DNA of 64,000 nucleotides. It comes from Somniosus microcephalus. Lineage: Eukaryota. The position numbers and the translations under genes were made by a program. Shown one piece after another: positions 15,801 to 58,664 of this stretch. The notes under the pieces are model-generated. The model was given only the letters and a program-made list of their open reading frames with translations, was not told the origin of the DNA and searched no databases. The stretch lies in assembly GCA_052327205.1 (NCBI GenBank), contig CM126225.1, forward strand, positions 38,006,001-38,070,000, given 5' to 3'. Position 1 is the first letter of the stretch. Every line of letters starts with the position of its first letter.

Positions 15801-17114
15801 TAAAATGAATGGACAGGGAAATCAAGTGGACTGCCAAACTGCAAGGGTAAGAGACTGGACATGGCTTCTAGACAATCAGGAAGTTCTTCTGACAAGGAAT
15901 GATCAATACATGGAATGGACTTCTGGATCCAGTAGTAGAGGCAAAAATCCTGGAATCTTTTAAGAACCAATGGGGTGACTGTAGAATGGATGAACTAAGA
16001 TGGGCTGAAAGGCCTTTCCTGTCCATAATTGTCTTGTAAACCTCCACACCCCTATTCTGATGTGCAATCCCAGTGCACAAAGCCATACACCTGGCAGTGA
16101 AAACTTCTAAGTTACCGCATGTATGCTTAGTGGGAACGCTGCAGTGCATGCCCTTTCCACTCACCTGTGGTGTGAATTGGGGCCAGGGTTCCCTTCAACT
16201 GAAGAGAATGATCAATGAAAAGATTCCAAACAGCAAACTTGGATGGATACCAGCAAGTGGTTTAAAAACGAGGAAGCGCAAAAAAGATGTGGTCTAAAGT
16301 TCTGAGAAGTAGCTTTAACCACAGTCTTATTTTGCATACCAATTTTGGTTTAAAATCAAGCCAGTAGCTGCAAAGCTTTGCAGTCCCATGTCAACAAACT
16401 GGAGTAAGTCAACTCTCTTGCATTCCTCATTCAAAACTGCAGAGTTTAAGTCCATTTGAGTGTCACTTTGTGCTCCAGATTGTTGCAGATTAACTGACCA
16501 CATCACATCCTTGTGGCATGGTGACAGCTGCTTGTTCAGGAGGAGTCTAGCTTATTTAACTGAAGTGTCAATACATGTAGTCATAATCTTTCCTGCTTTT
16601 CAGGTCAATGCTCTTTTACCTCCCTCTTTCTCAGAACCTCAAAACTGTAGATCTCCTTATGTCACTCAGTCTTTCTTCTCTTACTATTGTTAAGGCTTTT
16701 AAACACTTCATGTCACCTAATCACTAAGTGCTGCTTTATCTCATCTAGTTTATACTTTTCAAACTTGGTGGTGCCTTGAATTTATAGGCTTAAGAACCAA
16801 TGGTTTAAAGTTTAATTAATCCACTGTCAAAGCGCGATGAAGAAAATGCCATCTCCAGACAAAGTTTTGAATGAAGGAAGACTTGAAAAATTGGGGCGTT
16901 TATTAGTAAAACAACATGGATTACGGAACAATAGGATAGAAGTATTTAACATTACAAAAGGATGGGACAGATACAGATATAATGGGGTAGATATGAGCAG
17001 ACTGCTTCCAGTAGTTTAATAGCAAAATACTGCGGATGCTGGAAATCTGAAATAACAACAGAAAATGCTGGAAATACTCAGCAGGCCAGGCAGCATCCGT
17101 GGAGAGAGAAACAG

Positions 17115-17151
17115 AGTTAACGTTTCAGGTCTGGGACCCTTCATCAGAACT
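17115..17151 (-). ncRNA. Minimal type I hammerhead ribozyme motif in the PLE 3' end
   Basis: Minus strand reads AGTT-CTGATGA-AGGGTC-CCA-GACCT-GAAA-CG-TT-AACT: stem I AGTT/AACT, intact core, stem II, palindromic ACGT stem III. Confidence 0.75.
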
Positions 17152-17269
17152 GGAAAAAGCTGGAAATGTAACATATTAAGCAGGTGCAGAGACAGGGGGG
17201 GTGTGGTGTTAGGGGAGGAAGGAATTGAAAGAACATACTGTGAAAATGTTGCAAATGGGAATGGCAAAA

Positions 17270-18354
17270 TCATACTGCATGAAAAATGGGGGCAGGGATT
17301 ATTATCTGAAATTGTTGAACTCGATATTGAGTCCGGAGGCTGGTGGGGTGAAAGGTGAGGACGAGGGGAACCCTATCGTGGTTCTGAGAGGGAGGGGAAG
17401 GGATGAGAGCAGAAGTGCAGGAAATAGAACGGACACGGTCAAGGGCTGTGTCAACCACAGTAGAGGGGAATCCTCGGTTGAGGAAAAAGGAAGACATGTC
17501 GGAAGCACTGGTATGGAAGGTGGCATCGTCAGAACAGACGCGGCGGAGACGGAGAAACTGGGAGAATGGAATAGAGCCCTTACAGGAAGCGGGGTGGGAG
17601 GAAGTGTAGTCCAGGTAGCTGTGGGAGTCGGTGGGCTTGTAGTGGATGTTTGTCGAAAGCCGATCGCCAGAAATGGAGACGGAGAAGTTAAGGAAGGGAA
17701 GGGAAGAGTCGGAGATGGACCATGTGAAGGTGAGGGAAGGGTGGAAATTGGAAGTAAAGTGAATGAACTTATCTAGTTCAGGGTGAGAGCAGGAAACGGC
17801 ACCAATACAGTCATCAATGTACCGGAAAAAGAGGTGAGGGAGGGGACCTGAGTAGAACTGGAACAAAGAGTGTTCCACATATCCCATGAACAGGCAGGCA
17901 TAGCTAGGGCCCATGTGGGTTCCCATAGCAACACCTTTAATTTGGAGGAAGTGAGTGGAGTCAAAGGAGAAGTTGTTCAATGTGAGAACAATTTCAGCCA
18001 GGCGGAGGAGGGTGGTGGTGGATGGGGACTGGTTGGGCCTCTGTTCAAGGAAGAAACAGAGCGCCCTAAGGCCGTCCTGGTGGCGGATGGAGGTGTCGAG
18101 GGATTGGACGTCCATAGTGAAAAGGAGACGGTTGGGGCCAGGAAACTGGAAACTGTTAAAGTGACGGAGGGCGTCGCAAGAGTCGCGAATGTAGGTGGGA
18201 AGAGACTGGACAAAAAGATAGTCGAGATAGGAAGTTCCGTGGGGCAAGAACAGGCTGAAACGATGGGTCTACCAGGGCAGTCCTGTTTGTGGATCTTGGG
18301 AAGTAGGTAGAAGCGGGTTGTGTGGGGTTGGGGGACTATGAGGTTGGCGGCCAT
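17270..18354 (-). pseudogene. PLE reverse transcriptase, 5'-truncated and frameshifted; endonuclease deleted
   Basis: FYLLPKIHK..PGRPIVS (17977..18354 frame), then TMDVQSL, QIKGVAMGTHMGPSYA, FRYIDD, FLNFSV, TNIHYKPTD, YLDYTSSHP (17270..18247 frame). Confidence 0.92.
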
Positions 18355-18366
18355 GGAGGGAAGATC

Positions 18367-19040
18367 TCCGTTCTATTTCCCGCACTTCTGCTCTCACCCC
18401 TTCCCCTCCCTCCCAGAACCATGATAGGGTTCCCCTTGTCCTCACCTTTCACCCCACCAGCCTCCACATTCAACGGATCATCCTCCGCCATTTCTGCCAC
18501 CTCCAACGTGATCCCACCACCAAACACATCTTCCCGTCACCTCCCCTTTCAGCATTCCGAAGGGACCGCTCCCTCCACGACACCCTGGTCCACTCCTCAA
18601 TCACTCCCAACAGCCTTTCTCCTTCACCAGGAACCTTCCCGTGCAAGCGCAGGAGATGCAACACATGCCCTTTTACCTCCTCCCTTCCCACTGTCCAGGG
18701 CCCCAAACACCCCTTCCAGGTGAATCACCGATTTACTTGTACTTCTTGCAATTTCATATACTGTATTCGCTGCTCACGATGCGGTCTCCTCTACATTGGG
18801 GAGACCAAACGCAGATTGGGCGACCGCTTTGCGGAACACCTCCATTCGGTCCGTAAGGGTGACCCTGAGCTTCCTGTCACTTTAATTCTCCGTTTCACTC
18901 CCACTCTGATCTCTCTGTCCTCGGCCTATTACATTGTTCCAATGAAGCTCAACGTAAGCTCGAGGAACAGCACCTCATCTTTTGATTAGGCACTTTACAG
19001 CCTTCCGGACTCAACATTGAGTTCAACAATTTCAGATAAT
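18367..19040 (+). pseudogene. PLE Cys-rich linker and GIY-YIG endonuclease, disrupted
   Basis: CKRRRCNTC and FIYCIRCSRCGLLYIGETKRRLGDRFAEH. A 7-nt deletion near 18874 relative to the 58 kb copy shifts the frame. Confidence 0.88.
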
Positions 19041-19105
19041 AATCCCTGCCCCCGTTTTTTATGCAGTATGATTTTGCCATTCCCATTTGCAACATTTTCA
19101 TAGTA

Positions 19106-19438
19106 CAGGAAACTTTGTGCTATCCGGCACCCACGGGACCGAGCTGCTGCCGTTGCCTAAAAAGTGCCGTACTCTCCAGAGTTAATGTTGAGAGATACGG
19201 AGATTCTTATCTCCGTATTTGACAACAAACACTGTTGCTTAGCAACAGCTTCTAAACACTCGGGTGTGGCCCTAAAGCTCTGTAGCTGAAGCTGTTGCTA
19301 TAGCTACAGACCTTGCACAACTTGACTGTTCAAACAAAGCAAAAAAAACAAACAAAAAGAATAAAAAACGGCTGCTGATTTTTGCCGGTGGCTCCAGATT
19401 GCCGGATAGCTCACCTCCGGATAGCACAAAGTTTCCTG
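19106..19438. mobile_element. Young Tc1/mariner-type MITE nested in the PLE 3' UTR
   Basis: Perfect 22-bp TIRs caggaaactttgtgctatccgg / ccggatagcacaaagtttcctg with TA on both sides. The empty site cagTAtgttc is seen in the other arm near 17235. Confidence 0.92.
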
Positions 19439-19712
19439 TATGTTCTTTCAATTCTTTTCTCCCCATCTAACCCCCTCCCCCCTGTCTCTGCACCTGCTTA
19501 ATATCTGTTACATTTCCAGCTTTTTCCAGTGATGATGAAGGGTCCCAGACCTGAAACGTTAACATCTCCACGGATGCTGCCTGGCCTGATGAGTATTTCC
19601 AGCATTTTCTGTTGTTATTTTGCTTCCAGTAGTTGATGGGTCTAGAATGAGGCGCCATAAATACAAGGTATAATGTGAGAAATTTAGAACAGAGAACAAG
19701 AGAAACATCTTA

Positions 19713-19840
19713 TACAAAAGCAAAATACTGTGGATGCTGGAAATCTGAAATAAAAACAGAAAATGCTGGAAGCACTCCGCAGGTCAGGCAGCATCTGTGG
19801 AGGGAGAAACAGAGTTAACGTTTCTGGTTGATGACTTTTG
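19713..19840 (-). mobile_element. Solo PLE 3' end (pLTR fragment) with decayed hammerhead
   Basis: acaaaagcaaaatactgtggatgctgg...agagttaacgtttc. Diverged TSD agagaaacatcttat / agagaagcatcttgt. Confidence 0.75.
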
Positions 19841-23674: not shown

Positions 23675-23848
23675 TTATGTATTGCTGACTCATTTAATTT
23701 GCTACAATTTTTCTCCATTTAATTTTTTTCTGCTTGTTTGGGGCCTCTCTCGCACCTATATACTCTCACATCCAAAAATGGAGAAGAGTGACTTGCTTCT
23801 AGCCAAGCCTTTCTGTGTCATTCTTTAACAAGATGCTGGGACATACAA

Positions 23849-24026
23849 ATGTGAGAAGTCACACAACACCAGGTTATAGTCCAACAGCTTTATTTGAAAT
23901 CACAAGCTTTTGGAGCACTGCGCTCCGAAAGCTTGTGATTTCAAATAAAGCTGTTGGACTATAACCTGGTGTTGTGTGACTTCTCACATTCGTCCACCCG
24001 AGTCCAACACCGGCATCTCCACATCA
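23849..24026 (+). mobile_element. Miniature palindromic PLE derivative (second PLE family)
   Basis: 143-bp near-perfect palindrome at 23848-23990 (one mismatch, 5-nt loop) plus a 36-nt one-sided tail. 12-bp TSD TGGGACATACAA at 23837-23848 and 24027-24038. Centre GGAGC-actgc-GCTCC-GAAA-GCT resembles a hammerhead stem II plus GAAA. Confidence 0.75.
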
Positions 24027-24312
24027 TGGGACATACAAGAGAGTAGCTTAGGACTTGACTGACCATTTTCTCTCCCTGTGGCAAAAGTTCCCAGTTTCTC
24101 ACTAGGAAGTGCGACCTGTGATTTATCACTCCATTGTGTAGCTTTTTGGTATACATACCCACTGCACCAGCAGCCTTCACCTTTAGGTTTTAACCAAAAT
24201 GAGTCAATTCGAGAAGGATCTTGTGAGATTTTTAAACTTACATTGCTTAATCTTAACATGATCAGAAGACTCACCAAATGGCACCTTGGATCATTTTTCC
24301 TTTACTTTTTTA

Positions 24313-24478
24313 AATTCATTCCTGGGATGTGGGCGTCGCTGGCAAGGCCAGCATTTATTGCCATCCCTAATTGTCCTCGAGAAGGTGGTGGTGAGCCGCC
24401 ACCTTGAACCGCTGCAGTCCTTGTGGTGAAGGTACTCCGATAGTGCTGTTAGGAAGGGAGTTCCAGGATTTTGACCCA
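24313..24478 (-). mobile_element. CR1 3' end, same family as 8205-9234
   Basis: Reverse complement of about 9062-9225. Confidence 0.85.
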
Positions 24479-25029
24479 TCAGTTATAGTTCTCTTGTGAT
24501 GTGCATTAAAAAGAAAGATTTGCATTTATATGACGCCTTTCACAATCTCTGGATGTCCCAAGGCCCTTTACAGCCAATGAAGTGTAGTCACTGTTGTTAT
24601 GTAGGAAATGGGGCAGCCAATTTGCGCACAGCAAGAGCCCACAAACAGCAATGTGATAATGACCAGATAATTTTTTTTTACCGTTTATGGATATTATAAC
24701 AAAATGGCACCAGAAGTGGGAGGATACTGGACAAGATATTAGGTTAGAGTGTTGGATTTCTGAATACTCAAACTTATTTACTCCATAGTTGCTCTGAGTT
24801 TTGTAAAAGCAGCTCACTTTATCCTTTTGAAATGATTGGGGACCTGAAATTGACAGCAGCATGCTCTGGAATACATTATGCCTATGCACTCAGTAATTAC
24901 ACCATCAAATGTTATTTAATCGTGATTGCTTTTTATGTTCTGGGATGTTTTATGCTGGAACACGGGTCATCCAGTGAATTAAAACTCTATTGCACTCGCG
25001 CTTTAATCGGCTCTCTGGCTACTACTTAA

Positions 25030-25308
25030 GGGGTCGCCCAATTAAAATGGAGTTGAGGAGGAATTTCTTCTCTGAGGGTCGTGAATCTTTGGAATTCTCT
25101 ACCCGAGAGAGCTGTGGAGGCTGCGTCATTGAATATATTTAAGGTGGAGATGGACAGATTTTTCAACGATAAGGGAGTCGAGGGTTATGGGGAGTGGGCA
25201 GGGAAGTGGAGTTAAGACCAAGACCAGATCTGCCATGATCTTATTGAATGGCGGAGCAGGCTCAAGGGGCCAAATGGCCGACTCCTGCTCCTATTTCTTA
25301 TGTTCTTA
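25030..25308 (+). mobile_element. CR1 3' end, same family as 5495-6259
   Basis: RRNFFSLRVVNLWNSLP; tail ctcctgctcctatttcttatgttctta. Confidence 0.85.
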
Positions 25309-26439
25309 AGTACTTCAGGATGAAACCCATAAAATTAGAATAGAATATCTGCACATAGATCTCCTTCCTTGTCTCAGTGGTTAAATGTACTACATGTCAT
25401 TGCACTGATCTAAACAGACCATGAAGGTTTTTGTTTCACTCCCTAATCTGTGTTGGGTGAACCAATCTCAGTCAATGAAGGGAGAAAGTTTAGCTCGGAT
25501 TCCTGCCCCTGATTGCCATCCATTAACCCTGCTGGAAAGTCGATATGTGTGGATTCAAGATTGGACCAGTTGTGATGCTCCCCTGGTTTGATGGCACACA
25601 TTATCAAAGCTCATGAATTAAGGTTGGTTATTTGGTGAGGTGCTGCAGCTGCATGTTTTCAATAGAGGAAGGGTAAGGCAAGAAAATTGAATAGAATTTT
25701 TTTTTTAATCCGTATTTCACCCTCTTACGCCCAGCCTCGTGTTGAGATGACAGGCAAGTGAACTTTGTTCTGGCATTTGACACTACCGTTTTTAACCATC
25801 CCCTCAGAGATATGAGCCAAGCGTGATTTGCCCTCTGAATTTCACTTCCTCTTTGTGAAGAAGGGCCACATTCGGTGCTTCCTCTTGATGGCAACAGGTT
25901 AGATTGAGAGCTCATCCTATGGAAAAATTGTGGATGCAAACCAAAGTCCATTGACTGGCACATAGGCCCACCAATACACAGTACCACCAGGTAGCCCCAC
26001 AGAACAGGTGCAGAATCCGAAAGGCAGATAGTAAAACAGTGCCCAAAAGGTGTAAGAATCTCAGTAAACAGACACAGCTGGAAGAATGAAAAGAGGAAGG
26101 AACTTTCTGCATTTACTTTATTGCGGAAACACTGGGGCGAAATTCCTCTCGTTGATAATTTTTACGGAGAAATCAGTACGTGTACAAAATTGGATCATCG
26201 ACACAAGGAATTTCACTTCTACTGTTAGTTGCCTCCAACTACATGCAATCAGAAAAATAGGAACTTTAATGGAGTTTATGGCTTTACCAATGAGATTTGG
26301 AAATGGAGAGTGAGAGATTTTTTCCCAGTGATGACAATCTCTGGAAATGTCCATGAGAGAAAAATGTCCTGTTTCCTCTAAGGGAAAATATGCATAGGCT
26401 ACAGAGCCCAATTGAGTGTAGTGGTCACATGATATCGCT

Positions 26440-26780
26440 GAAATGCATTATGAAGATGACATTCTGGGTAACAAAGAAACTGTTTCCAGTGGCAGAAGGG
26501 TCGGTAACCAAAGGTCACATTTAAAGTCATTGATAAAAGAATCAGTGGTGACATGAGGGAAAAAAGATTTACGTAGCGAATTGTTATGATCTGGAATGCA
26601 CTGCCTTGAAGAGTGGTGGAAGCAGATTCAATATTAACTTTCAAAAGGGAATTGGATAAATATTTGAAGTGGAAAAAATTGCAGGGCTGTGGGGAAAGAG
26701 CAGGGGAGTGGGACTAATTGGACAGCTCTTTCAAAAGAGCCGAATGGCCTCCTTCTGTGCTGCATCATTCTATGATTCTA
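26440..26780 (+). mobile_element. CR1 3' fragment
   Basis: gaaactgtttccagtggcagaagggtcggtaacc...tggaatgcactgcc...ccgaatggcctccttctgtgctg..ttctatgattcta. Confidence 0.75.
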
Positions 26781-27246
26781 AGAAAGAAAGACAAACTTGC
26801 ATTTATATAGCTCCTTTCACGACCTCAGGACGTCCCAAAGTGCTTTGCAGCCAATAAAGTACTTTTGAAGTATAGTCACTGTTGTAATGTAGGAAACACG
26901 ACAGCCAATTTGCGCACAGCAAGCTCCCACAACAGCAATATGATTATGACCAGATAATCTGTTTTAGTGTTGTTGGTTGAGGGATAAATATTGGCCCAGG
27001 ACACCGGGGAGAACTCCCCTGCTCTTCTTCGAAATAGTGTCATGGGATCTTCTACGTCCACTTGAGAGAGCAGGCGGTTTATCGTCTCATCTGAAAGACA
27101 GCACCTCTGACAATACAGCACTCCCTCAGTACTGCACTGGAGTGTCAGTCTACATTTTTATGCTCAAGTCTCTGGAGTGGGACTTGAACCTACAACCTTC
27201 TGACTCAGTGGCGAGAGTGCTACCAACTGTGAGCCATGGCTGACAC
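26781..27246 (-). mobile_element. Full-length tRNA-derived Deu-domain SINE (SacSINE1/AmnSINE1 superfamily)
   Basis: Minus strand begins gtgtcagccatggctcacagttggtagcac (A box) ...ggttcaagtccc (B box), then a central domain recalled as Deu, then an L2-like tail ...gctatataaatgcaagt(cttt)n. Confidence 0.85.
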
Positions 27247-28960
27247 GGCCGAAAGCTCGCTGCCTATCTTATTGAAAGGACCTTGTTATGTAGAATTAGT
27301 TTTTCCAGTTTTAGTGGGCAAGAATCCATAGCACAAGTTGGCAGCCTCACTCTGATACCATTGGAAGATTTCCTCTATGCAATCATAAACCTGTTTATAA
27401 AGAACAGTTATAATTTTGCTACATGCAGAGTATAGAGGAAATCTTCCCCATAAGGGTAAATGATGTGGCAAATGGAAAAAATATCACCATGTTGTGGTGC
27501 AGTAATTGTTCTTCTGAGTTTGGAGTTGAAGTGCATTGCTGAGTAGGTTTGGCCAATGCTGTACCTTACTTGAAAGGTGTTGGTGCTGGGTGCCACGTGT
27601 ACAAAAGTGTTCCATTACTCAACAGTAATCATCGTGATGGGGGCAAAAACATCACAAAAGAAAAAAATATTGACATAAAAGCAGCTTGTTTTGCTTTAGT
27701 TATGTTACTTAAAAGACTCGCATGCCCTATTTTGGACTTAATAATACAGTAGGTCTGAGTGTTGATTTGGTTGCCATTTCATATGTCGGAGAATCCAAAA
27801 TGTTGTTTTTTCACATCGTGAATTAATACTTCATGGCCATTGGTGCAGGTCAATGTTACAGAATTAATTTTATAAGTCACCTTCAAAGTTTCATCCAGAT
27901 ACTGAACTATAGGAATAATAGAGCATTTCAGCCATGACACAGAATGAGGTGCGAAAGACAGCCATAGCTCACTACTTCCCGTGGAGCTCATGAGTTATGG
28001 GCTGTTCAAGCTTTAGAAGGAATTGCTGTAACTCACCGTCACAGGTGAGGTTCCCTTTGTTTAAAACATATGGAAAATACCCTAGAGGATGTTGTGGGGG
28101 ATTTGCAAAACAGTACAGCTTTGGTGTTTAGGATTGTAGCATTTCGGTCTTGCCCACCTAAAGACCTGTATCATACCTTTATGCTAATTTCAGGAAATGA
28201 AAAGAACGTTCTGCCCAGAACAATGCAATGTTGCTTTTGGAACATTAGTCTGAAAGATTTGTTACTCACAGTTTACAAAGGATACATTGAAGACAGAATC
28301 CAGGAAATGCTGCAGGATAGCTTGGGGCAGATGCAAAATGCAGATAGGTGTATATTTCTCATGCAAATTTCTTCTTCATCTGCTTTAGAGTAAAATATGT
28401 GAAGGTTTTCAATATTTTATAAAACTTTTTATTTAAATGTGGCTATTTAACTTTCGTTTTGCAAAAGGATTCCATTTGCACACTGGTGTGAAATACTGTG
28501 TAATAACAAGCTGTCGGTAATGGTTAATGAAGTTATAATGAACAAGAAGTCTGCCTGTATCTGTGGGGGTAACCACATTGTGATAATGTTGGGACATAGC
28601 GAGGATGAGCCTGTTTACAAAGAATTGACTTATGGATAAATGCACCACCCATGTGTGGTACTGAGACGTACAAATAAAAGTAAGGTCACTTGTTCAAATC
28701 AAGAACTGGACACGACAATTAGCCTCAACGTCCCTGATGATATCCGTTAACTCAGTACTGACCAAGGATCAAACCTCGGCAGGGAAAGTGAAAATCAGCC
28801 ACGGTTCTTCATCACTATCCAGGGACCCCTGCTGGAAAGTGCACATTTGTAGGCACAGGGTAAGGACTGGATCAGCCTCGGATGTGATGCCCCACAGTTG
28901 AATAGTCTGTTGACATTCACTGTCTGGACTCATAACTGAAGAATGGCTACTTGGATGAGA

Positions 28961-29284
28961 TAAAAACAGAAAATGCTGGAAATGCTCAGCAGGTTCGATT
29001 TCCCAGTGTCCTATTATAAACCCGAAAGACACTACACATTTCCAGTAGAACTTCCATTTTAGTTTACTGCAAAACAGCTCACGCACATACCTTGGAAGTT
29101 GCATTAAAATGGTACTTTGTAGTGGACAGAGAAATAAAGTTAACGTTTCAGGTCGATGACCTTTCGTCTGACCTGAAACGTTAACTCTGTTTCTCTCTCC
29201 ACAGATGCTGCCTGACCTGCTGAGTATTTCCAGCATTTTCTGTTTTTATTTCAGATTTCCAGCATCTGCAGTATTTTGCTTTTG
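28961..29284 (+). mobile_element. Miniature inverted PLE pLTR pair containing a 129-bp templated insertion
   Basis: Tailless inverted arm at 28961-29168 and tailed arm at 29170-29284. Centre agttaacgtttcaggtc...gacctgaaacgttaact. Diverged TSD tacttggatgaga / tacttggggtgaga. Inserted into a family-B SINE. Confidence 0.8.
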
Positions 29285-31459
29285 TACTTGGGGTGAGATG
29301 CTGGATGGCTGCTGACATCTGTGGAATTTTATCTTACCATTAGTCAGTGCTTTCAGGAGAACGGGAGAAAACCAGAGGAAAAAACAAAATAAAATGATCA
29401 CTACTAGCATGGAAAAGAATGCTAACGTGCCGACAGCTTCTTGCTTATTGTTGACATCAGATTCTGGGCCTACTAACAATGCTATATGAATCTAAGAGGA
29501 AATTTTCCAATGGGTGATCTTTTTGTGTGAGCACTTAAGGCAATCCTGCCAGCATTATTTAAAGGCAGGCATTAACCCGACCATGTTTGACATTGAAAGC
29601 ACAGTGCAGGTTAAAATGGCAGCTGCTGTTAAATGGAATGACTGTTGATAACTGCAGCACCAAGCAACAGTTAAGTCAATTGCAGTGATCTAATGGGTAT
29701 GTAGTACCTAGGCATTATTCGATATAGTACTCTAGCAGTGAAGATCGTGACTTTTTGAAATACTGTCAAGTTTACTGGTCAGGACAGTGCTAATTTTCAG
29801 GTCTCCTTTGTTCCTCTTGTTCATTGCTCGATTTCCCAGTGTCCTATAATAAACCCGAAAGATGCGACACATTTCCAGTAGAACTTCCATTTTAGTTTAC
29901 TGCAAAACAGCTCGCGCACATACCTTGGAAGTTGCATTAAAATGGTACTTTGTAGTTTGCAATATCACCATAGTTGTGTTTCAAAACCATTTCCTACAAC
30001 CAAGAATAAAAAGATTCAATGAGTCTGATTAATTATTAGTAAACATGTTTTTGGATTATTCATCAGTAGGAGTGAAAATAAATAAAGGTGAGTGACATGC
30101 CTCCTCCCCTCCCTGCAGCTCACTCGCCATCATCTGTTTATACAGTCTGTGGATGTGCTATTGTAATCAATTGCTAATTGGATCCATTGATGCAACTCAG
30201 CTGCTCGATGCCCTGTAGCCTCCTGCCGTTCCCCTGTGTAACAATTGACATTTAAAAAAAAAGAAAATTTGTACTTTTCAAAGCCCAGAAAACTACAATT
30301 CAACAAATTGTTAATGGCCGAGAAAACACATAGGTCTGTCTGTAGCCATACCATGTGTCCTATGGCAGTGAAAGATTTGACAATCTGATATTTTTTTTTG
30401 CTAAGCTTCATTGCCTCTGCTGTTCAGGAGAAGCTTGTACTGTGGTAATCCCAATTGAATGAGAACTGCATATGGTTTTCACTAACCCTTGACGTCAACC
30501 AGTAAGTGCATCAGATGGTATTGGATTTCAACTTCACCATTATAGAATAGGGCAAACAGTTCAGGAGAAGTGAGTTTTAAAAATGATTTGCTTCTCTGCA
30601 GTCTCCCCATCCCCAGTAATTTGAATGTTTCCCCACTTTAGGTTTGCTTGAACCATTACTCTATGAGGGGACAGGAAAGTGACCTGTACCCAGATCTCTC
30701 CCATCACTCACCCTCTCGGCAGTAGCTTTGCCTCTCCCTGGCACTTGCCCTTAGATAATCTAACTGAAATTGGGAGTTTGAGACAGGAAGAGATTTTGCT
30801 TGCAGTGGCATCAGAGCACATTAATCACCGTTCACATGCTGCTTTTTGATTTGGAACAGTAGGCAACGGCGAACAAATTTGAGAGTGTTAAGGCTGTGCA
30901 ACATTTCTATATTGCAAAATGGAACTTTTTGTGGCTGGTTAACAATATCAAACACAATTTGAGAAGTTCAGGCCTGTTGTGATCTTTACAATAGGAAGAA
31001 AATCTTAAAAATTTTTGTTTGAAGATTTTACTCATTTTTATTTCTTTCATTCCTCCTTTCCCATCGCTTTTCTCCCTCCTCACCTTGCTGAGATGCAGTT
31101 CTTTGGGTACCAGTCTTCTTCCAGTACCTCTCTCAAGTGGCCATTCCTCATTTGCGAGCCAAGACAGACAGTTTGACCATATTAGCGCAATAGCATGAAT
31201 GACCCAAGATTCATGCATATGTACTTCCAGCAGTTTTCATTTTTAATGATCAAGTGTCGAAACCCAAGCTGATTTTCCCTTCCATAACCCAGGAACTCTG
31301 AGGCCAATTGTAGTACCCTAACGTCAGCGAACTCTGCATAGACATGGGGACTTCCCTGGTCTGTACAACTCTGCTGGTTACTACCATAACTAGTCAAGCT
31401 GTTTGAAAACTCCAGATCGATTTTCCTGACCTTTGGTCCTTTCCGCAATTCTGCAAAGG

Positions 31460-34407: not shown

Positions 34408-34975
34408 TAGAATCATACTGCACAGAAGGAGGCTATTCGGCCCATCGTGTCTGTGCCGGCTCTTTGAAAGAGCTGTTCTATCAATCCCACTCCCCCGCTC
34501 TTTTCCCATAGCCCTGCAAATGTTTCCTTTTCAAGTATACAGGAGACTTTGTATTATCCGGCACCGACGGGACCGAGCTGTTGCCGTTCCCTCAAAACTG
34601 CTGGACACACCAGCGTTAATGTTGAAACATACGGAGCTTTTCATCTCCGTATCTGACAACAAACACTGTTGCTTAGCAACAGCTTCTAAACAGTCGGCCC
34701 GTACCTTGGAAGCGTCTCTGTAGCTTAGCAACAGCTTCAGAGAGACTTTCCAGAGCCTGACTGTTGGGAAAAAAAAAGCCACGAGAAGGAAAAAAAAAGC
34801 CACGAGAAGGAAAAAAACCTAACAAAACGGCTCCTGATTTTTGCCGGTGGCTCGAGCTTGCCGGACACTTAGCCTCTGGATAACACAAAGTTTCCTGTAT
34901 ATCCAATTCACTTTCAAAAGTTACTATTGAATCAGCTTCCACCACACTGTCAGGCAGTGCATTCCAGATTATAAC
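34408..34975 (-). mobile_element. CR1 3' fragment interrupted by a MITE
   Basis: tagaatcatactgcacagaaggaggctattcggcccatc... resumes after 34899 with tatccaattc...caggcagtgcattccaga. Confidence 0.8.
34540..34897. mobile_element. CAGGAAACT-family MITE
   Basis: TA|caggagactttgtattatccgg...ggataacacaaagtttcctg|TA. Internally collinear with 19106-19438. Confidence 0.88.
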
Positions 34976-35519
34976 AGCAGCAATTTCTTATGTTCAAGAA
35001 GCATTGTTGCCAATATCAGACCGTCTTAAAAGGAGAAATAACAGCAGAAAACGCTGGAAAAACTCAGCAGGCCAGGCAGCATCTGTGGTTGTTTTTTAAC
35101 AGCTGTGAAGATAATGAGGGGGATGTGTTCGTCCACCTCATTCTTTTGGCAAGAGTTTTTTCCTCTTCCCAGAAGGAAAGATAATGGGTGGAATCATTTA
35201 CTGCTGCTCGTGACTCCCCTTGCTTTCTCGGCCTTGACTCCTGTTTCTCCAACCCAGAATCCAACTACGACCCTAGCCCTAACTCCTGCTGCTTTTACAG
35301 CCTTGAATCCAGTTACAGAGGTATGTGGATAGTAGTAAGGCATACTGTACTGCGTACCTACTTCATGGGCACTATTCTTATTCTTTTGTCTGAACTCTTT
35401 TGGGTATGTTCAGAATAATCAACAATTTAAAACACATACGGTTATAATTTGAGAGAGAGCACTCTTCTCTACTTAACTCAAACAGACCATCACTTTCATT
35501 AAGAATTGACAAACACTTA

Positions 35520-37089: not shown

Positions 37090-38495
37090 GCTGAGATCAG
37101 CTATGGATCGAGCAAGAGACCTGCCTTTTCTGTTCAGCTCAGCCACTCATTGGATGAACTCTCTGAATCATTGGGGGAGTGTTTTGATTATTTTCATGGA
37201 ATTAACTTCTAAACTGCAATCCCTACTCTCTAACAGAGTACAATCTTTGCTGTGGTAGGTGTTTGCGGCTGCGTGATTTATGGAGTTCCTCTTCCATATT
37301 TGGCTCAAGTCCAGACGGGCATGGTTTAAGGAAGTGGAAACACTTTACAGTTTAAAACAAAGGTAGGTGGGAGCAGAACAGCACAGCATTCTGTGCAGAA
37401 GTTTCTTCATTTTCTCTGAAGACTTGGGGCTAAGTTCTGTAACCGTGATTCCGCCATAAAATAGTGTTACTTCCATGGTTAGCGGCACTGATCCAATTAA
37501 TTTGTCGTGCAAGCTGTGTTCTGCATTTTGATCTCCACTTTTTGTTGTGGTCGTTCGGTATTTGTTTTATTTGCCGTTTATTGTTGTATTTACAATGCAT
37601 AGGATTATGCATGTCACAAAAACATCATTTTTATGTTGTTGAATATTGGAATTTATTACTTAGCCTTTCACTAAATTGGAGGAGATGAAAAGTGTTAAAT
37701 ATAAGTTGCACAGAATTTGTCTCTCACTGGGTGTCCATTGAAAAAACAGTTTCCTACCATTTTGCTTCTCCTGCATGGCTTCTTGCTTCACGAGACTAAA
37801 CCTGGTGAATGCTTGTCTACTGTCGCTCTGGCCTAATTGACTACTGAAAGGTGCTCCGATAATTGAACAGGTAGTGTTTCAGCATGAGTGCCACATTGGC
37901 TCAGATCACTGGAGCACCATCGGGCAGTGTCATGCAGTGGTACAATGCTGGCTTCACTTCTGAGTTCCTGATCTTGGCTGCGCTCTTATGGGGAGATGCC
38001 TGGTATGCACTCGGTGGCTCTTCACTGTGTGGAGGGAAAATTGAAACTAAAATCATCCAGGGCCATTCATAGGACATAGAAAGGGAGGAATGGTTTGAGA
38101 CACTGAACATCAAACATATTTAAAGTAAAAAGAAGTTCCTAAAAGCATAACATTTGAGAATGCCATAGATGACGAGAGAATCTTGCATATGCTATCACTC
38201 GCACTCTATCAAGGTAGGAGTCATTATTAGTAAAAGCTAAAGAGAAATTGCCGCTCTCAACATCTGTAAAAAGGAAAGACTGGGTAACATTTTAGGTATC
38301 AGCCCTTCATCAAAAATGTTTACCTGTCTTTTCTCTTTACTGATACGAATGTTTTTCCTCCATTTTCTATTTTTATTTCAGAGTTCTAACATTTACAGCT
38401 TTTTATTTGTACTGCCTTTGTTGGTTTTATCTCATGCCCTCACATGGTCTTCCTTAACATTGGAAGGTGGCGAATACACTTCACTTCGGTGAGAT

Positions 38496-44060: not shown

Positions 44061-44650
44061 ATCATAGAATGATACAGCACAGAAGGGCATTCAGTCCATC
44101 GTGCCTATACCGGCTCTTTGGTAGAACTATCCAGCTAGTCCCACTCCCTCGCTCTTTCCCTATAGCCGTGCAATTTTTTTTGCCTTCAAGTATTTATCCA
44201 ATTCCCTTTTGAGAGTTATCAGTGAATCTATTTCCACCACCCTTTCAGACAGTGCATTCCCGACCACAACAATTCACTGTCGCCTCTGGTTCTTTTGCCA
44301 ATCACAAATCTGTGTGTAATAAAAACAGAAAATGCTGGAGATACTCAGCAGGTCAGGCAGCATCTGTGAAGAGAGAAACAGAGTTAACGTTTCAGGTCGA
44401 TGACCTTTTGTCAGAACTCTGTGTGTCCTGGAGCTGACCCTTCTGCCACTGGAAACGGTTTCTTATTTACTGTATCAAAACTGTTCATGATTTTGAACAC
44501 CTCTATCAAATCTCCTCTTAATCTTTTCTGCTCTAAGGAGAACAACCCCAGCTTCTCCAGTCTCTACTCATAACCGAAGGCCCTTACCCCAGAAATCTAG
44601 TAAATCTCTTCTGCACCCTGTTAAGGCCTTGACATCCTTCCTAAAGTGTA
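44061..44650 (-). mobile_element. CR1 3' fragment interrupted by a solo PLE end (about 44318-44417)
   Basis: aatcatagaatgatacagcacagaagg tail. The PLE piece is flanked by a tctgtgtgt duplication and its hammerhead core is mutated to CTGACAA. Confidence 0.8.
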
Positions 44651-47010: not shown

Positions 47011-47244
47011 CTTGCAGATGGACTTGCCAGTAGAGTAGGTCACTTTAGACTGTGAAATGCAAAATGACGATTAGTTAAAAGTGCAATTGCTCCTCCGTTT
47101 CTTCAATATAATATATACTTGCTGGAGTGCCCGGCGGTGCCTAGTGTTTTTTGAGGGCATCATGTTATGAAAAAAGTAGAAATAATTTTTATTATATATA
47201 TAAATGAGTTTGTCTGTCTGTGTGGGAAGGCGAAAGAGAGAGAC

Positions 47245-47701
47245 TGGGGCGGGGGGAGAGAGACTGGGGGGGGTGTGTGTGGGGGGGTGGGTGTGTGGGG
47301 GGGGAGGGGGGTGGGGTGGGTGTGTGGGGGGGAGGGGTGTGTGGGGGGGAGGGGTGTGGGAGGGGGGTGGGGTGGGTGTGTGGGGGGGTGGGGGGTGGGT
47401 GGGGGGTGGGGTGGGTGTGTGGGGGGGTGGGGTGGGTGTGTGGGGGGGTGGGGTGGGTGTGTGGGGGGGAGGGGTGTGTGGGGGGGAGGGGTGTGTGGGG
47501 GGGAGGGGTGTGGGGGGGGGAGGGGGTGTGTGTGGGGGGGGAGGGGGGTGTGGGGGGGGTGTGGTGTGGGGGGAGGGGGGGTGGGGTGGGTGTGTGGGGG
47601 GGAGGGGGGTGGGTGTGTGTGGGGGGGGAGGGGGGTGGGTGTGTGGGGGAGGGGGGTGGGTGTGTGGGGGAGGGGGAAGGGGGGGTGTTGCGGGGGGGGG
47701 C
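47245..47701 (+). repeat. G-rich minisatellite-like tract, G-quadruplex-prone
   Basis: About 450 bp of G3-G9 runs joined by T, A or TGTGT; essentially no C on this strand. Confidence 0.95.
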
Positions 47702-48305: not shown

Positions 48306-49183
48306 TTTTTGTATACTGTCCAAACAATTTTTGTCTGACGTTCCTTTGTCCACTAGTTTACTGTAGGCATTAACCTGTTTATTTTTAAACCGGTTAGTAT
48401 TTGCATTAAAATAACAGGGTGTAGAATGTCATCGAAACATGTTAAACAGGGGAATGCTAATATCACAAGCAGTTATTTCTTACACTGAGTTGCCTAAATT
48501 TGCTTTACAGGAAGCTCGGAATCTCAGTAAAACCATTTGTAGAAGTCATGGGTAAATGTAAGAAAATATATATAGGATAATAATTACAGGGCAGTAATAC
48601 AATGAATGGTTCACATGACATTATAAACTACAAGGGTACTTTCTGTATCGTGTGATTACCGGCAATGTGGAACAGGTCCAGTCTGAACGAGTGCTAACGC
48701 ATCTTATGCACATTTGAGTCTTGCCCCGTAAAGCAGCTGATCATTTGTACAAATAGAGAACATGGAGTGTTCCACACAACTAACAGTCCAAAGTACTGTA
48801 TCTTTGTTGTGGTTTCATTTTATCCCTCTTCCCTGCCAAGTATTAACTCTTGCTTGGGTACAGTTCCATGGGTACTGTCGGTTTTCGGCATCACATCCGC
48901 AAGAGCATTCTTCGTATTTAAGCAACAGAAGTGATTGTTGGCAGGCTATTGGAGGGATTCACCTAACAATCCTGATTTGGTTTTCTCTTAACATCCAGGC
49001 ATGTGCACTTTCCAGTATGAATTGCCAGAAAGGGATCAGAAGTGGGAACCTTGGCTGATTTTTTTTTAAACCCCTCCTAGTTAAAGGGTGCTGAGGTCAA
49101 TTGAAGCAACTCAACTGCTGCGTAGGTGAGATCAGTTAGCTCGGCAAATTCTGGGAATCAAGCCATCTCCAATTATAGCTTAT

Positions 49184-49320
49184 ACAAAAGCAAAATACTG
49201 CGGATGCTGGAAATCTGAAATAATAACAGAAAATGCTGGAAATGCTCAGCTGGTCAGGCAGCATCTGTGGAGCGAGTAACAGAGTTAATGTTTCAGGTCA
49301 ATGACCTTTCATCAGAACTG
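49184..49320 (-). mobile_element. Solo PLE 3' end with hammerhead core
   Basis: Minus strand AGTT-CTGATGA-AAGGTC-ATT-GACCT-GAAA-CA-TT-AACT followed by the tailed 3' end. Confidence 0.8.
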
Positions 49321-50448
49321 ACCTAACGTAGTAAAACGTCCCAAGGCACTTCACAGGAGCGTTACTAAACAAAATTTGACACCGAGCCAGCAAGAAATGC
49401 AAGCGAAGAATTGTTCACTGATGCAGTCAAATTTTCGAGGCTGGAGATTTGTCAGAACTTTTACTTCTCACAGTGATTGATGTATGGTATGTACTTCCAT
49501 CAGACTTCATGCTAATTCACTGAGCTCCTTTAAGAAAGGTGTTGGATAACTAGCAGCCAGTGCAATCGAAGTTTGTAGGCATAGACTTAGGCTGAGGTCA
49601 GTAAAAAGCCATGGAACACTGTCGTATATTATTCAACACAGAGTAACAATAGTTGGAGAAAGTTCATTGTTTTGCCCTTTTAGAAGTTTTACCTGGTTTA
49701 AATTGCCTGCTCAGAAACTTTGGATGGGGTTAGGTGAAGGCCTTAACAGTGTAGAGCAAATGGACAGAGTGGTCTTCTCCCATTCCATGGTTTTCTTAGG
49801 TTGCACATCCAAACATCAAATATTGTGAAATGTAATTTGCCGTTTCAAATAAATAGTAACTGGTGTTTAATGAAGTCTTCAGTGAGAATGCAAGGAAGGC
49901 TGTTACAGTGGGACTGTTTGCGTAGTATACAGAGAGGACAATGGATAGCTCTTAGTGAATTACAACCCAGCAGTTAAATCAGGGGGTTAAGATGCCATCA
50001 TCAATCACATCAGAGAAGCTCTGGTTGTATTGGTGTATCATTTTGCTTATATAACAACAGTCACTGCACTTAAAAATCAATTCATAGTGTGAAGTGGTTT
50101 GAGACGATCTGACTTGACAAGGTGGCTAAATGTAAGTAGTTCTTCTGTCTTTGGAGCCTCTTGATTGCATTACAGCATGTTAGCTCACTGAAGTATCTGT
50201 AATTTAGAATATGAATAAGAGTGTGAATTCTTATTATTGTGACCCATTTTCTGTTGCCATTTGAAGATGAAAGCGATGGAACATGATGTGGGGCAGAGCA
50301 TGTCACTGATTTTAGGACAGGGTGTTGGATTTGTAATGTAAAGGTATGGTAGTTTTATCAAGTAAGATTGAAGTATTTCCATTTCTATTTAATCGGCGGA
50401 TTACAGGAAAATTTGATACCACGTACATTATTAAATAAAGTGCTGCTG

Positions 50449-54568: not shown

Positions 54569-54893
54569 CAGGAAACTTTCGATTTACCGGCACCTAAATA
54601 ACCGGAAATCTCGGTTAACCGGCAAAATTCAGGAGTAGGTTTTACTTCATATTGTACTTGCCTTCCTCCAACTGGTGCTGTGCAAGGGTGTGGCTGCAGC
54701 TGTTGCTAAGCTACAGAGACGCTTGGAACTTGAGGCCATTGTTCTGCACTTGTTGCTAAGCAACAGGGATTGTTGCTTTATATGGAGCTCTGAGCTCTCC
54801 CTATCTTTTACTATAGCATTCGGTTATCCGGAATTTTTGATGAACCGGCACCACGTCGGTCCCGTCAGTGCCGGATAAAAAAAAAGTTTCCTG
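54569..54893. mobile_element. CAGGAAACT-family MITE, opposite orientation
   Basis: TA|caggaaacttt...aaagtttcctg|TA. The end tcggtcccgtcagtgccggata mirrors the start of the 19106 and 34540 copies. Confidence 0.85.
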
Positions 54894-54899
54894 TACTTA

Positions 54900-55333
54900 G
54901 AAAAAGAAAACAAAAGACTTTCATTTATATAGCGCTTTTCACAACGTCAGGATATCTCAAAGTGCTTTACAGCCAATGAAGTACTTTTGAAGTGCAGTCA
55001 GTGTTGTAATGTAGGAAATGTGGCAACCAATTTGTGCACATCCAGCTCCCACAGACAGCAACGTGATAATGACCAGAGAATCTCTTTTTCTTTTAGTGAT
55101 GTTGAGGGACAAATACTGGCCAGAACGCCAGGGAAAATTCCCCTGCGATCTTTTGCATCCACCTGAGAGGGCAGATGTGTCCTTGGTTTAATGTCTCATC
55201 CAAAAGACAATGCAGCACTCCCTCAGTACTGCACTGGGAGTGTCGGCTTGGATTTTGTGCTCAAGTCTCTGGAGTGGCACTTGAACCCACGACCTTCGGA
55301 CTCAGAGGCAAGCGTGCTACCACTGAGCCACAG
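54900..55333 (-). mobile_element. Near full-length Deu-domain SINE
   Basis: Collinear with 26781-27246, including the tRNA head (ctgtggctcagtggtagcacg...gggttcaagtgcc on the minus strand). Confidence 0.85.
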
Positions 55334-56917
55334 CTGGAAAGTATGCATATGGAGACCTGATTGGGCTTGACTGTGAAACCTTCTGCAGTCGATTAACTGG
55401 CCGACCAGGATCACACGTGAAGAATGTTCACTAGGGCAAGAGGCTGGAGGCCTGCCAGCATTCGCAGCCAGCCCCTTCAGGAGAGAGGGAGAGAAAATTG
55501 GGTTTAAAAAAAAATAAATCAGAACTGTGCAGTCGCTGGTAAAATATTCATGAGCCCAAGAAGCTCAACAGTGCAAAATGATAGTGATAGATTTCTCTTG
55601 CCACCTCTTGATGACCAGCTCAGAGCAGCATTAGTGAAGGTTTAGGGAGCAGGTCACTTTTCCTTCTTTGGTGCAGTTAGTCTATAGCCTGCATTGACCA
55701 GAGGAATGTATTGAAAAAGTATCATCCTCCGATTTCTGTTTTGCAAAGTATGTCAGAATTTTGCAAGTCCTGTTATAAGTGTTGATGTTCTTGTGCCTAA
55801 ACATTTTATTTGTGTATTTACTATAGCTATTAAAATACATTTATAAGTAATATCCCAATTAAGTCATCAAGTTTCATTTACAATGACTCATGCCCAAGGC
55901 TGACTTCTAGACCTGACATAAAATAGAAGTACAGAACACGATGATAAATGCGCGTCTAATTGTTTAATTAAGTGCTTTCTGCTATCGCATATTAGAAGCT
56001 AATAATTTTCAAAGTATATATGGTGTTGGGTGTTAGCTTGAGATAAAGTAAGAATTGGCTTTGGGCGATAACATAATCGAGGTGTTGTAATCATCTCATA
56101 GACCACAACAGCGTGTTTGAACGGTTTGTGTCGTGACCTAAGCTCCAAAGCTGTGTTGCAGCCAGTCGTGCATTCCCAGACAACTACTGTTTTGTGCAAC
56201 AGATGCAGGACTGAGCCATTTTAATATTTTTACACTTGGTAAGCTTAGCTCCTGCTGTGTTTTGTAGTTTCTGTTTGTGGCACCTGGTTAAAGTTTGCTG
56301 TTTGGATTTTTTCATGTGCAATCCACTAAAAGCTTCTGGCGTTTGGATTCCAATCCTTCTCTACCAATGTGTTTTGCCTTTTCTGCAGGTGCAATTTCGG
56401 TTCCTTGCTTGCATTCTCTGACTTTTGTTCAGGTTCCTATCTTAAATTTAGCAGTTAAAAATACACAGAAGTTACAACATGGAGCTGGGCCCAATCAATC
56501 TGTGCCAGCATTGATCCTCCATCTGAGCGTAGACGGGGGGAGGAGGTAATAACACGCAATAAACCTTCTCTTCTGTCACAGTCATGTGACAGGAAGGGAC
56601 CATGATCTGTGAGGGTGTTTTGCAAAATGTTACATGGCTCTCCTACTTTAGGTTTCCAATGTAATTGTAAGTGAATTGCAGCCTGTAAGGATTGTTCATT
56701 TGGTTTATAAAGATGTGACTTTTCCAAAATGTCGAACTTTCCAGCACATGAGGCCATTCAGCTCGTGCCTACATTGATGTATCTTGTTCTTAAAAACTAA
56801 ACAGAGCTCCGTATGTTTAATATAATAGCAAAATACTGCGGATGCTGGAAATCTGAAATAACAGAAAATGCTGGAAATACTCAGCAGGCCAGGCAGCATC
56901 CGTGGAGAGAGAAACAG

Positions 56918-56954
56918 AGTTAACGTTTCAGGTCTGGGACCCTTCATCAGAACT
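56918..56954 (-). ncRNA. Minimal type I hammerhead ribozyme motif
   Basis: Identical to 17115-17151. Confidence 0.75.
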
Positions 56955-57074
56955 GGAAAAAGCTGGAGATATAACAGATATTAAGCAGGTGCAGAGACGG
57001 GGGGAGGAGTTTAGGAGGGGAGGAAGGAATTGAAAGAATATGTTGTGAAAATGTTGCAAATGGGAATGGCAAAA

Positions 57075-57572
57075 TCATACTGCATGAAAAATGGGGGCAG
57101 GGGCTATTATCTGAAATTGTTGAACTCTATGTTGAGTCCGGAAGGCTGTAGATGTGCCCAATCGAAAGATGAGGTGCTGTTCCTCGAGCTTACGTTGAGC
57201 TTCATTGGAACAATGCAATAGCCCGAGGACAGAGAGATCAGAGTGGGAGTGAAGTGGAGAATTGAAGTGACAGGCGACCGGAAGCTTAGGGTCAACCTTA
57301 CGGACTGAACGGAGGTGTTCCGCAAAGCGGTCGCCCAATCTGCGTTTGGTCTCCCCAATGTAGAGGAGACCGCATCGTGAGCAGCGAATACAGTATACTA
57401 GATTGCGAGAAGTACAAGTAAATCGCTGTTTCACCTGGAAGCGGTGTTTGGGGCCCCGGACAGTGGGAAGGGAGGAGGTAAAAGGGCATGTGTTGCATCT
57501 CCTGCGCTTGCACGGGAAGGTGCCAGGTGAAGGAGAAGGGCTGTTGGGGGTGATTGAGGAGTGGACCAGAGT
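57075..57572 (-). pseudogene. PLE GIY-YIG endonuclease, inverted arm, frameshifted near the C-terminus
   Basis: NLVYCIRCSRCGLLYIGETKRRLGDRFAEH...EEQHLIFRLGT, then a frame change. Confidence 0.88.
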
Positions 57573-58258
57573 GGACAGTCCGTTCTATTTCCCGCACTTC
57601 TGCTCTCACCCCTTCCCCTCCCTCCCAGAACCACGATAGGCTTCCCCTTGTCCTCACCTTTCACCCCACCAGCCTCCACATTCAACGGATCATCCTCTGC
57701 CATTTCCGCCACCTCCAACGTGATCCCACCACCAAACACATCTTCCCCTCACCTCCCCTTTCAGCATTCCGAAGGGACCGCTTCCTCCGCGACACCCTGG
57801 TCCACTCCTCAATCACCCTGAACAGCCCTTCTCCTTCGCCTGGCACCTTCCCGTGCAAGCGCAGGAGATGCAACACATGCCCTTTTACCTCCTCCCTTCC
57901 CACTGTCCAGGGCCCCAAACACCCCTTCCAGGTGAAACAGCGATTTACTTGTACTTCTTGCAATCTAGTATACTGTATTCGCTGCTCACGATGCGGTCTC
58001 CTCTACATTGGGGAGACCAAACGCAGATTGGGCGACCGCTTTGCGGAACACCTCCGTTCAGTCCGTAAGGGTGACCCTGAGCTTCCGGTCGCCTGTCACT
58101 TTAATTCACCGCTTCACTCCCACTCTGATCTCTCTGTCTTCGGGCTATTGCATTGTTCTAATGAAGCTCAACGTAAGCTCGAGGAACAGCACCTCATCTT
58201 TCGATTAGGCACTTTACAGCCTGCCGGACTCAATATCGAGTTCAACAATTTCAGATAA
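57554..58258 (+). CDS. Uninterrupted C-terminal part of the PLE ORF: Cys-rich linker plus GIY-YIG endonuclease (5'-truncated; homology starts at about 57578)
   Basis: RLPLVLTFHP, AFRR, PCKRRRCNTC, FTCTSCNLVYCIRCSRCGLLYIGET..R..RFAEH, VACHF, EEQHLIFRLGTLQPAGLN. No native start, so translation is not implied. Confidence 0.7.
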   Translation: MRSGPEWTVRSISRTSALTPSPPSQNHDRLPLVLTFHPTSLHIQRIILCHFRHLQRDPTTKHIFPSPPLSAFRRDRFLRDTLVHSSITLNSPSPSPGTFPCKRRRCNTCPFTSSLPTVQGPKHPFQVKQRFTCTSCNLVYCIRCSRCGLLYIGETKRRLGDRFAEHLRSVRKGDPELPVACHFNSPLHSHSDLSVFGLLHCSNEAQRKLEEQHLIFRLGTLQPAGLNIEFNNFR

Positions 58259-58411
58259 TAATCCCTGCCTCCATTTTTCATGCAGTATGATTTTGCCATT
58301 CCCATTTGCAACATTTTCACAGGATGTTCTTTCAACTCCTTCCTCCCCTAACACCACCCCCACCCCTGTCTCTGCACCTGCTTAATATCTGTTACATTTC
58401 CAGCTTTTTCC

Positions 58412-58448
58412 AGTTCTGATGAAGGGTCCCAGACCTGAAACGTTAACT
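58412..58448 (+). ncRNA. Minimal type I hammerhead ribozyme motif
   Basis: AGTT-CTGATGA-AGGGTC-CCA-GACCT-GAAA-CG-TT-AACT on the plus strand. Confidence 0.75.
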
Positions 58449-58664
58449 CCGTTTCTCTCTCCACGGATGCTGCCTGGCCTGCTGAGTATTTCCAGCATTT
58501 TCTATTGTTACTCCATATGTTTAAATTGGTTTGTGATCTGTCTCCCTCACTTTGATCGTAAATCGCACTTCTAATATTTTCACAATAATGCCTCTGGCAT
58601 TGAGTAGAATTGTGCCTCAGTAAATTAAACTTAAGTTTTTATTTTTCTAAGTTTATTTAATGAT

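Follow-up and report, generated by a model that had tools for sequence, protein, structure and literature searches.

The 64,000-nt window analyzed here is the whole stretch of Somniosus microcephalus contig CM126225.1 (assembly GCA_052327205.1) between positions 38,006,001 and 38,070,000, forward strand. It is vertebrate DNA rich in repeats, and among these are two short palindromic insertions, element A (23849-24026) and element B (28960-29286), which an earlier note had read as miniature derivatives of Penelope-like elements (PLEs) folded back at stem II of a hammerhead ribozyme. We find that A and B are PLE debris of known architecture in an extreme, ribozyme-centered form, ordinary decayed repeats, and that the two arms of one insertion may come from two templates. 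The sample is very small, comprising five inverted insertions from one window: A, B and a weak old copy, I, invert in the ribozyme region, and two long copies, C and D, invert inside the open reading frame (ORF). Coordinates are those of the whole window, and signed positions such as +10 or -5 count from the first C of the hammerhead core CTGANGA, which is +1.

Anatomy of elements A and B

Element A consists of the following features.

23837-23848, plus strand: left target site duplication (TSD), 12 bp, exact
23849-23918, minus strand: tailless antisense arm, holding both CpG-type mismatches
23912-23934, plus strand: center, with the stem GGAGC/GCTCC around the T at 23919, then GAAA (23927) and the palindromic AGCT
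23920-23990, plus strand: sense arm
23991-24026, plus strand: one-sided tail of 36 nt, of which 26/36 are A or C
24027-24038, plus strand: right TSD

As the earlier note described, A is a 143-bp palindrome (23848-23990, one base being borrowed from the TSD) with a 36-nt tail on one side, set within an exact 12-bp duplication, TGGGACATACAA, that is identical at 23837-23848 and 24027-24038. Of 63,750 positions in the window, only the one holding A's own TSD shows a 12-mer repeated exactly at this distance. The hairpin fold has a z-score of -25, and 69/71 arm pairs match; the mismatches, at 23911 and 23917, are CpG-type transitions, both in the left arm. The placement of the axis at a GGAGC...GCTCC hairpin directly before GAAA was also correct, with a single T at 23919 as the symmetry center. 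Since both mismatches are CpG-type transitions and the center is 1 nt, the center was probably palindromic when A was inserted. The 5-nt "loop" would then have been palindromic itself, and the center a perfect 15-nt odd palindrome. Such a center could be a stem of 6 bp closed by a 3-nt loop, though two stem II 3' halves joined head-to-head are the simpler reading.

Minimal type-I hammerheads of metazoan PLEs comprise CTGANGA, one unpaired base, stem II, GAAA, a palindromic 15.2/16.2 step and a 4-bp helix I; they occur as pairs on opposite strands 100-700 bp apart, and many are solo motifs (PMC4209133). Positions 23922-23934 of A carry the 3' half of such a ribozyme (C11.1, GAAA, palindromic 15.2/16.2 and UH), a short motif that is suggestive only, and the CTGANGA box is absent, so that only the 3' half is kept. 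Similar shark repeats probably carry the full core upstream of such a stem. The A/C-rich tail resembles the AC-rich reverse transcriptase (RT) start region of an anole PLE (PMC11167929).

The window holds no second copy or relative of A, so the earlier statement that no parent lies there stands. An exact 24-mer gave 0 matches in GTDB genomes and blastn gave none in phage and plasmid collections, blanks that say little of a vertebrate element since these collections are mostly microbial; nor did a 49-aa translation match a 90% protein set, at near and longer lengths, a blank that says equally little given that the set is protein-coding. The same translation drew 18 matches from the 50% representatives, at 33-41% identity to long repeat proteins, which we judged to be chance after inspecting 3/18.

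Element B and its surroundings are made up as follows.

28948-28961, plus strand: left TSD, 14 nt, diverged
28960-29168, minus strand: tailless antisense arm, running through the whole of stem II into the catalytic core
28995-29123, plus strand: templated insertion in the left arm, 129 bp, source 833 bp downstream, with microhomology of 0-1 and 2 nt at its ends
29169-29286, plus strand: sense arm, from the stem II 3' strand (+16)
29250-29286, plus strand: tail of about 35 nt on the right arm only, its last 2 nt shared with the TSD
29285-29299, plus strand: right TSD, 15 nt
29828-29956, plus strand: donor of the 129-bp insertion, host sequence that is single-copy in the window

B is a head-to-head pair of pseudo-long terminal repeats (pLTRs) of a Neptune-type PLE, copies of which with RT and GIY-YIG domains are present in the window. 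Among the four termini of C and D, three share 91-96% identity with the right arm of B and the fourth 83%. The tail on one arm only and the diverged TSD are as the earlier note had them, the tail lying on the right arm and the two TSD copies measuring 14 and 15 nt. The inversion axis is not: the tailless arm overshoots stem II, reaching about +2, and the axis therefore does not lie at loop II. The tailed arm begins at +16, so the arms pair only up to the stem II 3' strand, and the 15-nt spacer is the whole of stem-loop II plus part of the catalytic core, in antisense. The join lies in the register of an imperfect inverted repeat, -8 to +3 against +15 to +25, that is, helix I and the core start against the stem II 3' strand and GAAA.

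The 129-bp insertion had been overlooked. It replaces about 12 nt of the left arm and differs from its donor, in the same orientation, at 5/129 positions. The arms of B differ from each other at 4/68 positions, with 1 in 35 in the alignment of the outer arm segment. From these two divergences, the capture would have taken place at the insertion of B or not long after it, and may represent a template jump during fill-in or a later break repair.

The reading of both elements as retro-insertions rather than miniature inverted-repeat transposable elements (MITEs) holds for B through its arms, which are common to the RT/GIY-YIG element; A is very probably of PLE origin as well, judging from its architecture. 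That A is instead a MITE, a nonautonomous DNA transposon, or a microRNA-like hairpin is highly improbable. Its perfect inverted arms, the lack of an ORF and the missing parent would suit either, and Rfam does return plant microRNA hairpins; these score 53 and 38 bits, far under the gathering scores of 83 and 80, and are matches to generic hairpins. In a MITE both terminal inverted repeats (TIRs) abut a short TSD of fixed length. In A a 36-nt tail separates the right arm from a TSD of 12 bp, in B a tail of about 35 nt intervenes, and the distance from GAAA to the end and the geometry of the tail are the same in both. A genuine MITE is available for comparison at 19104-19440, inserted in the right pLTR of C, with TA duplications abutting both of its perfect 24-bp TIRs (TA included). 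Relatives of this MITE, which we presume to be of Tc1/mariner type, lie at 34538-34900 and about 54689-54904.

The PLE family of element B

We refer to the Neptune-type family of B and copies C-I as family 2; A is treated as a separate family because the arms of A and B show no convincing similarity in a comparison made without a shuffle control. Two copies are long.

17015-19620: long inverted copy C; the tailed antisense arm carries RT, and the tailless sense arm, which begins at 18367, carries GIY-YIG; TSD 15/16
56821-58510: long inverted copy D; the antisense arm is tailed, and the sense arm, which begins at 57579, is tailless; TSD 13/14

The parent of this family encodes RT, with a GIY-YIG domain at the C terminus, in one ORF. 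The RT fragment matches 146 RT proteins at E <= 1e-10, the best being a Chiloscyllium punctatum protein at 66% identity, and the GIY-YIG domain of C and D gives a profile match at or just below the curated cut-off. Upstream of GIY-YIG is a CX4CxxC linker common to 79/81 homologues having the YxGET motif. A CX2-5CxxC linker between RT and GIY-YIG ties an element to the Neptune clade (PMC8557442), and by this linker we assign the family to Neptune; the RT matches include no named Neptune reference. The pLTRs of C, D, F and G contain a predicted hammerhead, with the core, a stem II with a covarying closing pair, GAAA, a palindromic ACGT and a 4-bp helix I. This is the minimal layout given above, except that stem II is closed by G-U or A-U and not by G10.1-C11.1 (PMC4209133). 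Rfam returned no match for the family-2 hammerhead, and a family-2 26-mer, sought like the 24-mer of A, gave 0 matches, a blank that again says little.

Both C and D have their junctions within the ORF, at microhomology of about 3 nt (C) and 5 nt (D). The tailless sense arms begin at the identical ORF base, 18367 in C and 57579 in D, about 10 nt 3' of a small hairpin. The two are independent insertions, with different TSDs and different pLTR variants, and the common start may reflect either a stop hotspot or a shared truncated source. The left arm of C lacks about 530 nt, most of GIY-YIG, at 17327-17340, with about 16 nt of homology at the join; this is either a template jump or a later microhomology deletion. 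Finally, an ATG lies in the ribozyme core (58417-58510 and equivalents), and the frame it opens seems, by eye, to cross the pLTR without a stop codon; stem II is where the ORF of the anole element begins.

5' ends at the ribozyme

The remaining copies of family 2 are short.

19713-19840, minus strand: solo copy E, tailed, 5' end at +7 (stem II start), TSD 13/15
44317-44419, minus strand: solo copy F, tailless, 5' end at -4 (helix I edge), TSD 9 bp
49183-49320, minus strand: solo copy G, tailed, 5' end at -5, no TSD found
35033-35088, minus strand: solo copy H, tailless, 5' end at +46, outside the ribozyme and thus the exception
38258-38415: old, weak third miniature palindrome I, junction at the ribozyme, no TSD found

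Copy I is detected by nhmmer at E = 0.042 for the left arm and 0.00056 for the right, and 0/1000 shuffles reach either alignment score. Copy G is embedded in another short repeat family (49183-49360) with no recognizable TSD. We considered G as a fourth miniature inversion and rejected it, as the bases past its end are the other repeat, running on for 40 nt.

Three of the four solo copies (E, F and G) end in the ribozyme region. Taken together, 5/6 short family-2 insertions have 5' ends within -5 to +21 of the core (P = 7e-5 under a uniform model and 6e-4 under the best-case exponential). Because the solo copies, which are not inverted, end in the same window as the inverted ones, the ribozyme region is a hotspot for 5' ends generally and is not specific to inversions. 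The claim that inversion centers lie at stem II holds in part. The short junctions, those of A, B and the weak I, are in the ribozyme region, whereas C and D invert in the ORF. F, G and the left arm of I end at -4/-5, and 0/8 short family-2 arms end at +10, the position for a fold-back on stem II. All short arms except H keep the predicted cleavage site and sequence 5' of it; the template RNAs would therefore have been uncleaved.

The hotspot could have another cause, a short nonautonomous RNA that starts at the 5' edge of the hammerhead and gives rise to the short copies. We consider this possible, though doubtful; it is compatible with the twin priming proposed below and would alter only the cause of the hotspot. 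Seven diagnostic columns set E, F, G and B apart from C and D as one subfamily. The starts of F, G and the left arm of I at -4/-5, the helix I edge, lie beside a pyrimidine tract and CAG resembling a splice acceptor, which is found directly 5' of helix I at 58395-58415 and at the equivalent positions in C and D, and in Drosophila virilis Penelope an intron ends at this position (PMC4209133). Nonautonomous PLE derivatives have also been described (PMC8557442; bioRxiv 10.64898/2026.07.22.740005), the non-LTR retrozymes of the latter being short, noncoding, hammerhead-bearing derivatives of PLE pLTRs in head-to-tail tandems with intact ribozymes. A and B are likewise short and noncoding, but head-to-head with a broken ribozyme, and not head-to-tail tandem units with intact hammerheads. 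The lack of a tandem, retrozyme-like array of family 2 in the window and the spread of the 5' ends over 12 nt speak against a short RNA.

Possible use of two templates and a proposed mechanism

Insertions of this general kind are known. Inverted pLTRs, one-sided tails, TSDs and junction palindromes have been described in endonuclease-containing (EN+) PLEs (PMC3846280, PMC8557442, PMC8969392). Like A and B, the published inverted insertions are head-to-head, 5'-truncated copies with a 30-40 nt tail at one end and palindromes at the junction (PMC3846280, PMC8557442); A has a 36-nt tail with a 12-bp TSD, and B a tail of about 35 nt with a TSD of 14-15 bp. The TSDs are 8-10 bp in the published insertions and 9-16 bp here. 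In contrast to those published insertions, both arms of A and B are truncated in the ribozyme, no ORF is present, and the tailed arm has no complete hammerhead. Very short PLE insertions, with a median of 128 bp, are known from Chlamydomonas (PMC9977147). As to origin, the explanations put forward in the literature are self-priming in antisense, resolution by the endonuclease, and "steps yet to be validated". Should the arms of single insertions belong to different subfamilies, two templates must have been used, and the arms here suggest two templates where the published reading is self-priming.

The first line of evidence is that the arms differ in content. In both B and D, the tail is confined to one arm, while its tailless partner extends further 5', by 14 nt in B and by about 215 nt in D. 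C is the opposite of B and D, its tailed arm being the longer, so that both polarities occur within one subfamily (C and D). A fold-back cDNA can copy only its own content, and the private sequence on each arm of B and D therefore needs two templated events. The second line is that arms pair across insertions. In a four-arm alignment of C and D, 6/6 informative sites group C-left with D-right, and likewise C-right with D-left, while none groups the two arms of a single insertion. C-left and D-right lie 8 edits apart, the two arms of D 21, and the two arms of C 29, a single deletion accounting for 9 of these last. Private substitutions in the pLTR number 21 in two arms and 7 in their partner arms (p = 0.013).

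These data bear on the mechanism of the earlier note, by which a single target-primed cDNA would stall once stem II has been copied, then fold back and use itself as template. In its favor, the palindrome of A is almost perfect and is centered on a stem II-like hairpin, the terminal base of an antisense strand that stops at +10 is paired with a probability of 0.80, and C shows the polarity that such an event requires. However, B and D hold private sequence on both arms, none of the 8 short family-2 arms stops at +10, C and D invert in the ORF with arms that pair across insertions, and undoing the two CpG changes leaves A a 1-nt loop, which suggests joined half-stems (a 6-bp stem with a 3-nt loop being possible). 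Self-priming of a single cDNA on stem II is thus unlikely; fold-back fails as a general mechanism, and the claim of a ribozyme location holds loosely. The hairpins of the family-2 antisense strands do not exceed shuffled sequences in stability (z -0.45 to -1.05). In the sequence of D, of the long subfamily, the last-base pairing probability of the antisense strand is 0.89 at +22 and 0.56 at +23.

In the second alternative the arms again share one source, either by self-priming on antisense RNA or from a DNA hairpin outside the chromosome, which would be integrated after uneven trimming by the endonuclease had left it with a single tail. Junction palindromes in rotifer PLEs led to the proposal that inverted-pLTR insertions are caused by self-priming on an antisense template (PMC3846280), the tail has been ascribed to endonuclease resolution (PMC8557442), and the polarity of B, D and I is permitted. 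Such a source predicts arms that are identical at birth, which the four-arm sites and edit distances contradict; C would need the opposite polarity; and later work placed the tail on sense RNA, in the interval between two RT start sites (PMC11167929). We regard this origin as quite improbable.

We instead propose, at a probability of roughly 0.6, that the known class of inverted, one-tailed PLE insertions has its shortest members in A and B, made by twin priming and joined at complementary patches. The GIY-YIG endonuclease nicks both target strands, with a stagger of 9-16 nt as the TSDs show. Each freed 3' end would then prime a separate cDNA, the tailed RT start site being used for one and the tailless site for the other, and the two antisense cDNAs would grow toward each other. 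They would be joined head-to-head at a few complementary 3' bases, directly or after one folds back; we infer both the order of priming and the annealing. If both cDNAs end early, they would stop in the hammerhead region, a hotspot for 5' ends that is locally self-complementary, and the outcome would be a 140-330 bp palindrome centered on the ribozyme, which would act as a stop and annealing site and not as a catalyst.

In L1, whose 5' inversions Ostertag and Kazazian reportedly ascribed to twin priming in 2001, the second primer anneals at a distant upstream site, so that another segment is inverted; in the PLEs here the starts would be about 35 nt apart at the 3' end, which gives an inverted duplication. 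Twin priming as defined for L1 has both ends of the cut target priming reverse transcription, and the two cDNAs being joined (PMC2246262). The proposal agrees with this definition and, by analogy, with the in vitro behavior of the anole Poseidon PLE PAc, which cleaves and extends both strands, has two RT start sites that bracket the tail, is a predicted dimer, and does not need ribozyme cleavage (PMC11167929). PAc is of a different clade from family 2, and in the main text of that paper inverted insertions are not derived from its activities.

Several points weigh against twin priming from two templates. The -5 to +21 window was picked post hoc and includes the weak copy I, whose right-arm start was placed near +21 by eye. 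Four of the five clustered copies (E, F, G and B) belong to one subfamily, and their clustering could therefore stem from a short template RNA. Antisense ends at -4/-5 may pair with themselves in the register of B (predicted P about 0.5), which would make a fold-back step possible. The GIY-YIG stretch of the D arms is symmetric, with 12 versus 9 private changes in 520 columns (p = 0.66). The four-arm signal amounts to about two independent events in two insertions, since 5/6 sites fall within a single C-rich tract prone to slippage; a similar pattern could arise if C and D, which are 39 kb apart, had undergone ectopic conversion. The arms of A (69/71) are equally compatible with plain fold-back, so that A alone cannot discriminate, and its parent was found in none of the GTDB, phage, plasmid and protein collections.

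More tentatively, and at rather less than even odds, inverted PLE insertions might be a routine product of a dimeric enzyme that makes two cDNAs, often from two RNAs and one per tail boundary, and joins them head-to-head, and the hammerhead might be retained in part because its structure halts the cDNA and offers a place to anneal, and not for its nuclease activity. If this were true, one mechanism would account for inverted pLTRs, the one-sided tail and many MITE-like hairpins in vertebrate genomes. Ribozyme-centered miniatures matter for annotation in any case, as they resemble MITEs or microRNA hairpins, and if transcribed they could yield double-stranded RNA. Our literature search found no report of ribozyme-centered miniature palindromes, of twin priming or two-template evidence in PLEs, or of such copies misannotated as MITEs, which is weak evidence as Repbase, Dfam and most subscription papers were outside its scope; four short motifs had no match in a full-text search, and PMC5753468 and PMC3649969 offered nothing further.

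Further observations concern the surroundings. The donor of the 129-bp insertion (29828-29956) is possibly the end of a coding exon on the plus strand; an acceptor-like site lies nearby at about 29801, followed by an open frame to 29892. Upstream of B, 28193-28348 contains 51 open codons between acceptor-like and donor-like sites, which suggests that B is located in an intron of a plus-strand gene; Pfam gave no significant match for two candidate exons. At 47200-47700 there is a long G-rich (GGGT/GT) low-complexity tract.

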